Source: Dictyostelium discoideum
Lineage: Eukaryota
NCBI GenBank assembly: GCA_000004695.1
Contig: CM000151.3
Coordinates: 1,632,001 to 1,696,000 of the forward strand
Length of the DNA stretch: 64,000 nt
Direction: 5' to 3'
Under the pieces are notes generated by a model that made no database searches, was not told the origin of the DNA, and worked only from the letters and a program-made list of their open reading frames with translations. Made by a program: the position numbers and the translations under genes. Positions 25,508 to 31,847 of the stretch are shown here, one piece after another; the stretch's first letter is position 1; the number at the start of each line of letters is the position of its first letter.

Positions 25508-26684
25508 GAAATAAAATTTGGGTGTCTTAAATGAAAAAAAAAAAAAAAAAAAAAAAAAAAAAATTTCACAATTTTTTATTCAACTTTGAGAAAAGTTTTG
25601 TTGAGCAAGTAACAATGCTTTCAGTTTATAAAAATGATTTAGAAAAAATAAAATAAAATAAAATAAAATAAAAATAAAAATGAAAATGAAAAAAAAAAAA
25701 ATTTAAATAATAATAATAATAATAAAAAATATTTTAAAATGAACATATTAATGTTTTTGATGATTTTCCCATCATTCAAAGATTTTTTGGAACAAAAATG
25801 CCACCTTTTTTTTTTTTTTTTTTTTTTTTTTTTTTTTTTTTTTTTTTTTTTTTTTTTTAGGTTTTTTTTTTTTTTTTTTTTTTCAATGTTTTTTTTTTTA
25901 ATTTTATTTTTAGACATTGTATTGTTTTTTTTTTTTTTTTTTCAAAAACCACACACACACACACAATCAACGTTGTCAAAAAAAAAAAAAAAATAAAAAT
26001 AAAATAAAATAAAAAAATAAAATATTTATTTTATTTAAATCATAATATTAATTAAACCACACTAAATATAGCATTTCATTTATTTATAATTTTTTTTTTT
26101 TATTGTATTGAAATTTTTTTATTTTTTTTTATTTTCACTCGCAACAAAAGACATTATATGAAATAACATTTACTTTTTTTTTTTTATTTATTTATTTAAA
26201 ATAATTTATATTTTAGAATATAAATTAAAAATAAAAAAAATTATAGTCCCTAGATTTAGTTATTATAATTATTTATATGTACCTTAAAAAAAAAGGAAAG
26301 AATAATTATAATTTCTATAAAAATAGTAAAAACTATATTGTAATAATAAAATAATAATAGTAATAACAGTAATAATAATAAAAATTAAATAATAAAAAAA
26401 AAAAAAAAAAAAAAAAAATGTCAACTGGATTATTAAATAAAGTAATTTCATCTATTTTTCTTGGTGGATCAACTTACTGTCATTGGGTTGGAGAAAAGAT
26501 TAAAATGTTTTCATCAATAATAGGGGATAGTTTAAATGAAAGAGTTGAAATAATTAAATTATTTGAATATTCTTCACTCGAATTTGAAAAGCAAGATACT
26601 TTAGAAGCTATTAAAAAGGGTAATTTAGATTCTATTTTATTTATCATACATTTAAATTTTTAACATTAATATTAACATATATGT

Positions 26685-29600: not shown

Positions 29601-31847
29601 GAGAAGGATTCAATCTATTATGGTTCAAATGATTATGGTTTGACAATTCACAATGAAGATGAGTATCTTTCAAACAAGGTAAAAGAGGTAGCAACACTAT
29701 TGAATATTAAAGGTCATAGATGTGGTGATAATGGTACCTTTTTACATTCACCAGCAGATTTAGAGGGTCATCGTGGTTTTGATGGTAGATATTATCTATT
29801 GGATTTCGCAAGACTTTACCCACCTGAAGCACCAAGAAAAGAGATTAAAATGGGTCATCTCTATAGATTATTAAGACCAGAATTTGTTAGAAACTATAAG
29901 AAACCATTATGTTCAGATTCTTTTTCACGTTTCATTAGAGGTCATAATGAGTTGGAGCATAATAGTGAAACTTTGGAAGCAACAAGTTATCTATTGAATA
30001 CAACGATACCAGAATTGGTGGAAGAATTGAATGGTGTTGAAATATCTACTTCAAATGTTTACACTTTTCCAATCACAGAATCACTTCATAGAAGTGGTGT
30101 TAATGTTAGATATTTAGGTTACATTCGTCAATCTTGTCAATCATTGGATATGAAATCATTGATTTTCATTGAAATGTGTGCACGTGTAGTTAAACAACAA
30201 CTTCGTCAAAAACTTCGATTCAAAATGAAACAAGCAAAAATTCCATTGGAAGCACCTTATCGTCGTTTAATAGTTACCTACCTAAATAGAATTCTTGGTA
30301 TAAGTGATAAATCTGATTTATTTTGGAATGAACGTATGAAGAAATATTTAATGAAAAAATTTGATAAAGGTTTATTTGAAGATGAAATTCGTGGTGATTC
30401 TTTAGTATTGGGTTTATCATCATTTTCAGATCATTTAATTGATGGAAAATATTTATTATTTAAAAGAATTCAAAAGATGACCGGTTTAAAATTCACTCAT
30501 CGTATTAATGAAGAATTTAGATTACAACCAAATTGTTGGTTACTTCGTGGTGAGAATCCTTTGGATATAAATGATTTGGATGAAATTGGTATTCGTGTCA
30601 AATATGTACCATTTATGAATGTGGCTCAAGGTTATCTATTTAAAGTTAAGGGTGAAATGTTATTCAATAGTGGTGATCCAATCGCAGCAAATCGTTTCTT
30701 TAAAATGGCTTTGGAAAAATTAGAGACTGCCTTAGAGACTGATCCAAACAATGCAGATACACTTTGCACAATGGGTGAAGTTTATTCACACTTGGGTGTT
30801 GGTGATATGCAAGGTGTTTCGGAAATTCAATTCTCTGATAGAAATAATCCAGATATCGATAAAGCTTTTGAATATTTTCAACGTGCAATCTTTTCAAATC
30901 CAAATCATACTGACTCTCTCTTTAGATTTGCTCAACTTTTAGAACGTTGTGGTGAATATGATTCCGCTGAAGATTATTATCTCTCCTCTTTGATTACCAA
31001 TCCAAATAATATCGTTTGTTTACAAGAGTATGGTAATTTCCTTCAATCTGCTCGTGGTGATTGTGTTGCTGCTGAACAATTCTTTATGCGTGGTTCTGTT
31101 GATCATCAATATTTACATAATCTAAAATTAAAACAACCTTCCTCAAATATTAATATTAGAAGTTCAAGTGGTTTATTAAAAGTTAAATCAAGTTCAAGTA
31201 CAACAAGTAGTAATAATTTAATACCTCTTAATTTTGGTTCTTCATCAAGTGGTAGTAATAATTCAATTAGTTATGATTATTCATCTTCAAATTCTTCAAC
31301 AACTTCAACAAATTCAACAAATTCAACAAATTCAACAAATTCAACAAATTCAACAAATTCAACAAATTCAACAAATTCAACAAATTCAACAAATTCAACA
31401 AATTCAACAAGTAGTAATTCTTCTTCACCCTCTTCATCAATAATTAATAATCAAAATAATACAAATAATAATAATAATAGTAATAATAATAATAATAACT
31501 CACAATCATCATCACCATCAACACTTAATATGAGAGGTAGTGGAAATAATATTTTCAATAATGATTTAAGAGGTAGCGGTGGTGTTATTAGATTAACCCC
31601 ACCATTTTTAGGTTTAAATGGAAAAAATGAAAATTATCGTGATCAAGGAATTGACTTAACTCCAATAAGGGAGAATAATATTAGGAAATCAAATGGGTCA
31701 ACTCCAAGTCATTCTCCAAGAGGTAGAAGTGGTAGTTTTGGTCTTTATGGTGGTAGAGAAAGAGACAACAGTGCTGGTAGTAGTGGAAATAATAGTGACG
31801 GTGAATTATCCTCTTCTCCATTACAAAGAAAATTTATGGTTCTCTAA
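26685..31847 (+). CDS. CLU-domain (clustered-mitochondria / TIF31 family) protein with C-terminal TPR repeats and long N/S-rich low-complexity regions, 1720 aa as called. It is a paralogue of, not identical to, the canonical CluA architecture, because it lacks the Clu_N region
   Basis: The central Clu domain is ...FIVHGILFKFAIDREEFYGSDYASMCVGGHELKGLINVFNCNVSNLSLPLMALVDYRGFRVIAMSILPV...RLLRPEFVRNY...SGVNVRYLGYIRQSC... It aligns with yeast Clu1 (FLKDNIFYSY...ILAQTPVPGLL; LLRPELVEKWW; NGINMRYLGKII). TPR-like repeats follow (GDPIAANRFFKMALEKLETALETDPNNADTLCTMGEVYSHLG...AFEYFQRAIFSNPNHTDSLFRFAQLLERCGEYDSAEDYYLSSLITNPNN). The start is uncertain: the first 8 codons (MWFLISIL) overlap a TTTTAG acceptor at 26704-26709 and are probably intronic. 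A possible upstream exon is 26418..26619, with GTAATT at 26620 and a phase-compatible acceptor at 26709. Confidence 0.75.
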   Translation: MWFLISILGNFLTFLLFILVLTLLIIIDKRYGFQSRRKKQQLKKGISISSGSIGNNISNNLPMAMGGIRNRYKHRTRKSIGSSSEMKSQIPDIQLLQNKRNQRESLHIQHQLENDIYNKNKLKQSLQGTQLLLTNNIENEKEINNNNNENSDNNDDNNNIENSSKKSDIGKNNNNINLTTLNGVGGSQMFKSFRDSENGSFINSSMESINSLSTSSLEGSTNRLLTSQESDDNLLHYHQEEARKLVNQSIRDKSKAKQRATILNSPLLEDLYKDKKANAPPQFKRIRSSKKNNCYSYQSSSLFNSNTITRSKLNNNSNNNSNNNNNSNINNSPLPTIGVVQPPISQALSSFNNNFNTNSFNSNNLLPFFNAKIDTTNYIPTQTFGYNYKGVNNLNNLNNNIDKINNNNNSENNKNNFNGVKSAPLSPNHHLVEIVEYKVPTLSPFILKSTPNQQQHSPTINNCSISNSNSLSSNLLLSVDEFLEKKTKEQEIINNKVIIDNNNNNNNNNNNNNNNNNNNNNNNNNNNNNNNNNNSLIPPTSLNFKNIRISDHGEKVTSPSALMNQHNHIISPTTSPSKPPKNRSKLLMSNYHEDGLNELINSNNNNNNNNNNNNNNNNNNNNNNNNNNNNNNNNNNNNSNSNNSNNNNNNNNSKITPQPPKNISLRFASSAISTPKVESDEDDSNDEREEEEEEDDHEENDNGLEQKEDKKFNQDEEHDKIEQLYKEKSSSIEQLNKLLEQTTNKTSLSSSLPPSPPIIPFSTNTINNNNINNFPFDSIKSTSTITAATTTQIINNSENDISLNDNEEEEDYCDSDIDGEDFSSVNIDYNERFQEIMEDLRNIDCNSLQSEKIKVNSQFIALTQDFVYASSTFGKVIISERYLPNSEKTIPSIDIGGLAGGDKFIVHGILFKFAIDREEFYGSDYASMCVGGHELKGLINVFNCNVSNLSLPLMALVDYRGFRVIAMSILPVEKDSIYYGSNDYGLTIHNEDEYLSNKVKEVATLLNIKGHRCGDNGTFLHSPADLEGHRGFDGRYYLLDFARLYPPEAPRKEIKMGHLYRLLRPEFVRNYKKPLCSDSFSRFIRGHNELEHNSETLEATSYLLNTTIPELVEELNGVEISTSNVYTFPITESLHRSGVNVRYLGYIRQSCQSLDMKSLIFIEMCARVVKQQLRQKLRFKMKQAKIPLEAPYRRLIVTYLNRILGISDKSDLFWNERMKKYLMKKFDKGLFEDEIRGDSLVLGLSSFSDHLIDGKYLLFKRIQKMTGLKFTHRINEEFRLQPNCWLLRGENPLDINDLDEIGIRVKYVPFMNVAQGYLFKVKGEMLFNSGDPIAANRFFKMALEKLETALETDPNNADTLCTMGEVYSHLGVGDMQGVSEIQFSDRNNPDIDKAFEYFQRAIFSNPNHTDSLFRFAQLLERCGEYDSAEDYYLSSLITNPNNIVCLQEYGNFLQSARGDCVAAEQFFMRGSVDHQYLHNLKLKQPSSNINIRSSSGLLKVKSSSSTTSSNNLIPLNFGSSSSGSNNSISYDYSSSNSSTTSTNSTNSTNSTNSTNSTNSTNSTNSTNSTNSTNSTSSNSSSPSSSIINNQNNTNNNNNSNNNNNNSQSSSPSTLNMRGSGNNIFNNDLRGSGGVIRLTPPFLGLNGKNENYRDQGIDLTPIRENNIRKSNGSTPSHSPRGRSGSFGLYGGRERDNSAGSSGNNSDGELSSSPLQRKFMVL
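28183..28286. repeat. (AAT)n pure array, about 34 units, poly-Asn in the CLU-domain gene
   Basis: Seen in the sequence. Confidence 0.9.
28491..28640. repeat. (AAT)n array, about 45 units with a few AGT interruptions, poly-Asn in the CLU-domain gene
   Basis: Seen in the sequence. Confidence 0.9.
31301..31400. repeat. 9-bp tandem repeat (CAACAAATT)x11 encoding (STN)n
   Basis: Perfect period-9 array seen in the sequence. It is translated as STNSTNSTN... in the CLU-domain ORF. Confidence 0.9.

Follow-up and report, generated by a model that had tools for sequence, protein, structure and literature searches.

A predicted membrane-anchored CLU–TPR protein of Dictyostelium discoideum and the clade around it

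The CLU gene and its product

Within a stretch of 64,000 nucleotides (nt) of Dictyostelium discoideum (contig CM000151.3, positions 1,632,001 to 1,696,000 of the forward strand; hereafter the window, to which all coordinates refer) we analyzed a gene encoding a CLU-domain protein with C-terminal tetratricopeptide repeats (TPRs). Among the CLU proteins, CluA, CLUH, FRIENDLY and REC govern the biogenesis of mitochondria and plastids as well as their distribution, and are treated as soluble. Poly-Asn tracts, A-rich start contexts and short introns rich in A+T give the window a Dictyostelium-type signature, and its G+C content is 10-15% between genes and 25-34% within open reading frames (ORFs). 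The locus is one protein-coding gene on the + strand, whose ORF 26685..31847 comprises 1720 amino acids (aa), ends with TAA and is followed by sequence of 9% G+C. Directly upstream lies a second ORF of 81 aa (26418..26663), the first part of which, 26418..26619, ends in phase 1 and can be joined in frame to position 26710. The spliced product would then have 1779 aa and about 200 kDa, with GNFLTFLLFILVLTLLIIID at residues 68-87, and the protein mass can be given as 193-200 kDa. It is probable that the locus represents a dictyostelid member of a membrane-tethered CLU branch, with two exons and a single-pass anchored product of ~200 kDa. The gene has the following features:

26394..26417 (+): poly(A) tract directly 5' of ATG 26418, context aaaaaaaaaaaaaaaATG
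26418..26619 (+): candidate exon 1 of 202 nt (67 codons and one further base), with the translation MSTGLLNK...LEAIKK
26620..26709 (+): candidate intron of 90 nt, GTAATT...TCAATTTTAG, 15.6% G+C, which holds the rival ATG 26685
26685..26687 (+): rival start codon (MWFLISIL...), context atatgtATG with no A at -3 to -1
26710..31847 (+): exon 2, uninterrupted to the TAA stop
26712..26765 (+): predicted transmembrane (TM) anchor NFLTFLLFILVLTLLIII, from hydropathy, codon score and an equivalent in the clade
26766..26816 (+): basic juxtamembrane flank DKRYGFQSRRKKQQLKK, from the charge count, with a similar flank in most orthologues
26817..29165 (+): Asn/Ser-rich, presumably disordered linker, which holds both (AAT)n arrays and conserved motifs
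29166..29831 (+): CLU domain (Pfam PF13236) with a protein-kinase-like fold
29832..30650 (+): helical solenoid, including an eIF3_p135-like stretch at 30072-30233
30651..31037 (+): C-terminal TPR repeats (Pfam TPR_17, TPR_19, TPR_2, TPR_1 and TPR_14; TPR matches in the PDB; AlphaFold2 helices 483-655 of the core)
31152..31187 (+): post-TPR motif NIRSSSGLLKVK, kept among dictyostelids
31295..31410 (+): 9-bp tandem repeat, translated as (STN)x11, in the C-terminal tail rich in Ser and Asn

The CLU domain (PF13236) was found at residues 828-1049 of the ORF with an E-value of 7.4e-56 and 189.9 bits, covering profile positions 1-223 of 225. It is followed by a partial match to eIF3_p135 (PF12807; residues 1130-1183, E 3.8e-7, profile positions 10-69 of 171) and by TPR families at residues 1323-1451 (TPR_17 with E 4.7e-12 plus others). 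A Pfam scan of the whole ORF at E<=0.01 detected no Clu_N, no other N-terminal domain and no SH2. An earlier note on this DNA, made from the letters alone, had described a divergent CLU protein with TPRs but lacking Clu_N, which agrees with the Pfam results. The two (AAT)n arrays and the (STN)11 repeat of 9 bp that it had listed were likewise recovered by Tandem Repeats Finder, the arrays at 28164-28287 (41 copies) and 28490-28645 (52 copies) and the 9-bp repeat at 31295-31410 (12.9 copies, 99% matches); at the protein level they correspond to poly-N runs of 34 and 36 residues and to (STN)x11. Its description of the N-terminal 900 residues as low-complexity holds broadly, with 23% N and 12.5% S, but the ~800-residue low-complexity linker contains short motifs kept in all four dictyostelid sequences. 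Among them are NAKIDTTNYIPT at 27792-27827 and EEEDYCDSDIDGEDF from 29106. The conserved motifs lie at 27792-27827, 28116-28142, 28671-28706, 28836-28865, 29106-29186 and, beyond the TPRs, at 31152-31187, and their patterns include [NS][AT]K[IV][DN]xxxY[ILV]PT, EE(D/E)EDYCxSDIDGEDF and the post-TPR R(G/S)SSGLLK(V/I)K. No exact match to the unspliced ORF, the 81-aa ORF, the spliced protein or a neighbouring 677-aa ORF was found in a collection of 15 billion proteins.

The N-terminal anchor, its clade and the start of the gene

The segment NFLTFLLFILVLTLLIII has a Kyte-Doolittle mean of 2.73 over 19 residues, and the net charge is -1 over the 15 residues before it and +7 over the 20 residues after it. 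Since the basic flank follows the hydrophobic segment, the positive-inside rule predicts that the C-terminal bulk is cytosolic, so that the protein would insert into a membrane in an N-out/C-in topology. N-terminal signal-anchors with a basic C-terminal flank are common to type-III/P450-like anchors of the endoplasmic reticulum and to mitochondrial outer-membrane proteins such as Tom20 and Tom70.

The 656-aa CLU–TPR core retrieved relatives with up to 83% identity, and an exhaustive HMMER search returned 6861 library representatives at E<=1e-3, with 1077 at E<=1e-30. From 133 core regions and 591 columns a neighbour-joining tree was calculated, and the N-termini were searched for a hydrophobic segment of ~19 residues within the first 80 residues, usually then followed by a basic flank. 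All strong TM-bearers included in the tree form one clade together with the D. discoideum protein (the query), which joins P0001, P0002 and P0121, then P0003, P0004, P0006 and others. This clade comprises sequences from Dictyostelia, Pelomyxa and unassigned protists. The query has the TM trait, and so do 12 of the 15 N-terminally complete members of the clade vs only 2 of 82 sequences outside (Fisher p = 5e-11), both of which are weak. N-terminal hydrophobic segments, most of them followed by basic residues, are present in P0003, P0004 (Pelomyxa), P0006, P0010-14, P0022, P0029, P0035, P0057, P0092 and P0121. Examples are MNLVSFFTAGLCIASASLFLYLQRKKRYRL (P0003), ...VVVATVWVGLFATHILKAWVRRKEDRE (P0004, Pelomyxa schiedti), ...ILVLTAGMGGAFIFIAMICIKKKMKKYARRR (P0006), MFSHIPILVITLCVVHITAMLVFFLWRARHD (P0035) and MVVIVDWLVSVILAITAAYLVHTYSDRQSRNDRLLKLKKRLKR (P0121). 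The sister clades instead carry other N-terminal modules, namely PH, SAM, Rab-like GTPase, LRR or protein kinase. The N-terminal anchor thus appears to be the defining accessory feature of a distinct CLU-domain/TPR clade.

P0121 is the orthologue of Acytostelium subglobosum (GCA_000787575.2), and its protein starts with the anchor-containing sequence MVVIVDWLVSVILAITAAYLVHTYSDRQSRNDRLLKLKKRLKR. The Acytostelium locus is syntenic with the window, since a Metallophos phosphatase gene lies upstream in both, a PP2A-type gene with three exons located at 23025-24236 (+) in the window and at 2136-3277 of the Acytostelium locus L001. This order of phosphatase and CLU genes is a local synteny conserved across dictyostelid groups. 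Because an N-terminal hydrophobic segment is conserved across the orthologous clade, the stretch in the query can be regarded as coding, and it is most likely a real, conserved membrane anchor and not intron debris. The earlier note had preferred to see here AT-rich sequence derived from an intron, a view that does not agree with the equivalent segment in 12 of 15 clade members, including the syntenic Acytostelium orthologue; the membrane-anchored CLU protein that it had mentioned as unusual is the reading favoured by the conservation in the clade.

For the 5' end of the gene, all 27 in-frame GT..AG joins between both ORFs were enumerated. The join 26619|26710, with the donor AGG|GTAATT at 26620 and the acceptor TCAATTTTAG|G ending at 26709, has the shortest intron of all (90 nt) and the lowest G+C content (15.6% vs ~26% in the exons), and it is the only one that combines a GTAA donor with a T-rich TTTTAG acceptor. 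The spliced junction is predicted to read GCTATTAAAAAGG|GTAACTTTCTTAC. Joins that skip the TM (e.g., 26620..26817) were rejected, as they have purine-rich acceptors and introns with an exon-like G+C content of 18-22%. The same GTAATT donor is used in the gene at 32020-33148 (-), which encodes a papain-family (Peptidase_C1) cysteine protease and contains one intron of ~105 nt, GTAATT..AATTAG, whose excision restores the active-site motif QGSCASCWSFS (split as QGSC|ASCWSFS). The introns of the PP2A-type phosphatase gene are GTAAGT..AATAG and GTAGGT..TTTAG. All these introns of neighbouring genes are backed by homology and resemble the proposed one.

A codon log-likelihood score, trained on the other long ORFs of the window vs its AT-rich spacers, gives +40.4 bits for exon 1 in frame vs -68 and -65 bits off frame, and the G+C content of this exon is 26% vs 10% upstream. 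The last 15 codons of the upstream ORF, past the GTAATT donor, score -7.9 bits, and the score of 26619-26708 is negative in all frames. Moreover, ATG 26418 is preceded by 24 A's, similar to other confident starts in the window (acaaaATG of the phosphatase gene, aaaaaaATG at 58375 and ttaaaaATG at 44482), and ATG 26685 lies only 21 nt past the stop of ORF 26418..26663. The spliced model is thus favoured by the codon scores, by a coding signal that stops right at the donor, by the contexts of both start codons and by the distance of only 21 nt between the upstream stop and ATG 26685. The two-exon model with its start at ATG 26418 is the best-supported gene model and probably the correct one. This is the upstream exon that the earlier note had proposed, with the same donor, phase 1 and the acceptor at 26709.

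Two other readings of the 5' end have to be weighed. According to the first, the hydrophobic stretch is non-coding, being part of an intron or untranslated region (UTR), and translation of a soluble CLU protein starts downstream, for example at MAMGG (26871), which the earlier note had considered with a start around 26872. This would fit the low G+C content of the TM region (15.9%) and its nearly neutral in-frame codon score of -2.2 bits. However, the off-frame scores of the same region are -34 and -31 bits, a difference of ~30 bits in favour of the coding frame, and the 43 codons after the TM (26772-26900), which include sequence 5' of the MAMGG ATG, score +37 bits in frame. The context of this ATG is poor (cttccaATG), the acceptors that would skip the TM are purine-rich with introns of exon-like G+C content, and the orthologous clade is characterised by its N-terminal TM. 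As both the upstream coding signal and the orthologues contradict such a start, a soluble product is extremely improbable. The second reading keeps the same anchored protein, but translated from ATG 26685 (MWFLISILGNFLTF...; MWFLISIL followed by GNFLTF...) with the anchor at its extreme N-terminus; the earlier note did not take into account that the orthologues open in this way. In that case ORF 26418..26663 would represent a tiny gene of its own, a translated upstream ORF or a 5' exon of some transcripts. In favour of this start, the Acytostelium orthologue opens with Met plus TM, with an in-frame TAA 6 nt upstream and a 330-nt spacer without an ORF resembling exon 1, and transcriptome-derived orthologues begin 1-10 residues before the TM; in addition, the eight codons 26685-26708 score +1.6 bits in frame. 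The exon-1 peptide also has no homologues: the exon-1 ORF gave no Pfam match, a homologue search with the N-terminal 193 aa returned nothing, scanning metagenomes with the N-terminal 176 aa and with a peptide pattern across the junction revealed no relative, and the peptide had no tblastn match in the Acytostelium locus or elsewhere in the window. On the other hand, the context tgtATG is poor compared to the A-rich contexts of the confident starts, and the 21 nt after the stop of the upstream ORF leave no space for a promoter or UTR. The upstream ORF with its +40 bits and its last 15 codons at -7.9 bits fits splicing and not a free-standing 81-aa gene, and the F/L/I/S residues after ATG 26685 are the natural translation of a T-rich 3' intron end. 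A start at ATG 26685 is therefore unlikely, although it deserves to be kept in mind.

Several points weigh against the two-exon, anchored gene. The exon-1 peptide is without homologue in any search, including that of the Acytostelium locus, all orthologues whose N-termini are informative open directly with the anchor, as ATG 26685 would, and the two-exon model was derived from genomic sequence and not from transcripts. The TM was called by a simple hydropathy window instead of a dedicated predictor, and the neighbour-joining tree carries no support values. The closest dictyostelid database models, P0001 and P0002, are without TM and belong to the three exceptions in the clade; these EukProt models start mid-linker and are probably 5'-truncated. 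Furthermore, the TM is shared as a physicochemical feature and not as alignable sequence, and the TM-proximal 115-124 residues of the two dictyostelid orthologues could not be aligned by BLASTP. From the start of the Acytostelium protein and the exon-1 peptide without homologues it can be assumed that 'Met plus anchor' was the ancestral architecture. If exon 1 is used in D. discoideum, as the two-exon model predicts, it would have added a lineage-specific extension of 67 residues by means of a 5' exon, whereas a start at ATG 26685 would leave the protein without it. The anchor belongs to the protein under either start, and the hydrophobic segment must stay in the gene model.

The CLU–TPR module, its relatives and a possible role

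An AlphaFold2 model of the core (656 aa, positions 29166-31133, alignment of 46 sequences) reached a predicted local distance difference test (pLDDT) score of 93 and a predicted template modelling (pTM) score of 0.91, and shows an alpha/beta domain that passes into an unbroken helical solenoid ending in the TPRs. The CLU domain of human CLUH is classified in ECOD as kinase-like, closest to HopBF1, with altered catalytic residues (PMC10041065), and the assignment to a kinase-like fold is thus not new. Among 133 non-CLUH sequences, the core residues G73/G74/K76 are kept in 130/130 and K85 in 130/133, position 107 is E in 118 and D in 15 (89% E), and D198, E200, H202, D206, D213 and R216 are found in 128-133 of 133, with K85, D198 and D213 being conserved to 96-98%. 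This results in a near-invariant constellation of GGxAGG..K, D198-L-E-G-H202 and L-L-D213-F-[AS]-R216 in non-CLUH CLU proteins at 30-83% identity. According to the model, these residues would map to the Gly-rich loop, the beta3 Lys, the alphaC Glu, the catalytic loop and the DFG-like Asp, and K85, E107, D198 and D213 sit in the expected secondary-structure elements. The clade of the query keeps D-L-E-G-H and L-D-F-[AS]-R almost without exception, whereas the catalytic residues of CLUH are reported to be changed, a comparison made by description (PMC10041065). The atypical kinases RIO, Bud32, HopBF1 and OspG have no detectable sequence similarity to the query, and a CLU-only family profile (A3) retrieved neither kinases nor Toxoplasma CLU proteins from the PDB sequences. 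The kinase-like constellation suggests that this branch may bind nucleotide or may be catalytically active. That it constitutes an undescribed family of CLU/TPR proteins anchored to an organelle or the plasma membrane and acting as an active atypical kinase or nucleotide-dependent enzyme is a rather doubtful proposal; if true, the soluble CLU proteins, which organise mitochondria and plastids, would have in it a counterpart bound to a membrane.

CluA, Clu1, Clueless, CLUH and FRIENDLY have the same order of CLU domain, eIF3_p135-like helices and C-terminal TPRs as the query. CluA orthologues are described as soluble (PMC4541047), and the predicted anchor speaks against solubility of the query. 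In contrast to the CluA/CLUH family, the query has no detected Clu_N but a predicted anchor and a linker of ~800 residues, and because of the missing Clu_N and the predicted anchor it is not regarded as a CluA/CLUH orthologue. One could assume that it is nevertheless a functional equivalent of CluA/CLUH that acts in mitochondrial distribution and mRNA binding, since it shares the three parts of the module and its anchor topology is like that of Tom20/Tom70, and since a weak TPR-level match to Tom71 was found (E 0.003). But apart from the lack of Clu_N, the closest structural relatives of the query are preconoidal-ring proteins of Toxoplasma, CluA is already present in Dictyostelium, and the roles of other non-CLUH CLU proteins lie in SH2 signalling (CldA/CldB, PMC2906285) or flagellum attachment (FLAM3, PMC4541047) instead of mitochondrial distribution, which makes a functional equivalence very unlikely. 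The Toxoplasma gondii relatives CGP (TGME49_240380) and PCR10 (TGME49_298010; PDB 9ya0) share 15-18% identity with the query, and are huge structural components of the apicomplexan apical ring and not TM-anchored TPR proteins; in a single-sequence search, the 656-aa core gave a weak match to CGP (E 0.006) in the helical region. Tom70, Tom71, Tom20 and OM64 share the design of an N-terminal TM, a basic flank and cytosolic TPRs, which is an analogy only, as they have no CLU domain and their homology to the query is limited to generic TPRs, with weak TPR-level matches to Tom71 and OM64.

In the same group of organisms, CldA (145 kDa, with SH2) and CldB (164 kDa, no other recognisable domain) show phosphotyrosine-dependent binding to the SH2 protein LrrB (PMC2906285). 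Like the query, they are non-CLUH CLU proteins with simple-sequence inserts, and CldA also has C-terminal TPRs. An identity of the query with CldA or CldB was rejected because of the size and the absence of an SH2 match, and the query is by its sequence a further Dictyostelium CLU paralogue beside them. The conserved Tyr-containing motifs in the linker recall the phosphotyrosine-dependent binding of CldA and CldB to LrrB. By this analogy, the Tyr motif Y[ILV]PT and the acidic motif EDYCxSDIDGEDF may be phosphorylation or SH2 docking sites.

With regard to its architecture, the protein would start with the lineage-specific segment of 67 residues, followed by the single TM helix NFLTFLLFILVLTLLIII and the strongly basic flank. 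The helix would insert in the membrane and leave the remaining ~1690 residues in the cytosol, comprising the disordered Asn/Ser-rich linker, the compact CLU–helical–TPR module and the Ser/Asn-rich tail. The protein is probably a membrane-tethered scaffold or adaptor, which would hold its CLU–TPR module at the surface of an organelle or at the plasma membrane, facing the cytosol. The locus thereby points to a whole CLU–TPR clade built with an N-terminal anchor, in which the kinase-like core residues are nearly invariant, and it offers an entry in a model organism to two questions, namely how a membrane-fixed CLU module acts and whether CLU domains catalyse. In full-text literature searches, neither a transmembrane CLU-domain protein nor a functional study of the query gene came to light. 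The CLU-domain superfamily and its kinase-like fold were already known, and the predicted membrane-anchored architecture is what would be new.

In protists, the CLU–helical–TPR module was also found with varied N-terminal domains (Rab-like GTPase, PH, SAM, protein kinase and LRR) in P0141, P0144, P0154, P0041, P0071 and P0105. The module seems to behave as a portable cassette with interchangeable localisation domains, the TM anchor being one solution. P0004 of Pelomyxa schiedti is named 'Histidine kinase' in NCBI, a name that looks mis-annotated since the listed Pfam domains are only CLU, eIF3_p135 and TPR families.

Neighbouring genes in the window

In the interval between the phosphatase and the CLU gene (24497-25996), only short ORFs on the minus strand (24497-24757, 24771-24977 and 25076-25507) and homopolymer or dinucleotide runs are present, and the largest of these ORFs gave no Pfam match. 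The interval could be a multi-exon minus-strand gene or non-coding. Its Acytostelium counterpart harbors an unannotated minus-strand gene of 636 aa. At 33521-35554 (-), the ORF of 677 aa contains RSN1_TM, PHM7_cyt and RSN1_7TM and is thus a CSC1/OSCA/TMEM63-type channel. The context of its first ATG is poor and the RSN1_TM match begins at profile position 78; the ORF probably misses an upstream exon. Finally, 50589-52520 and 52999-54861 (-) encode tandem AMP-binding, acetyl-CoA-synthetase-like paralogues with identical start contexts (aaaaaaagggataaaATGtatgat), which suggests a recent tandem duplication.

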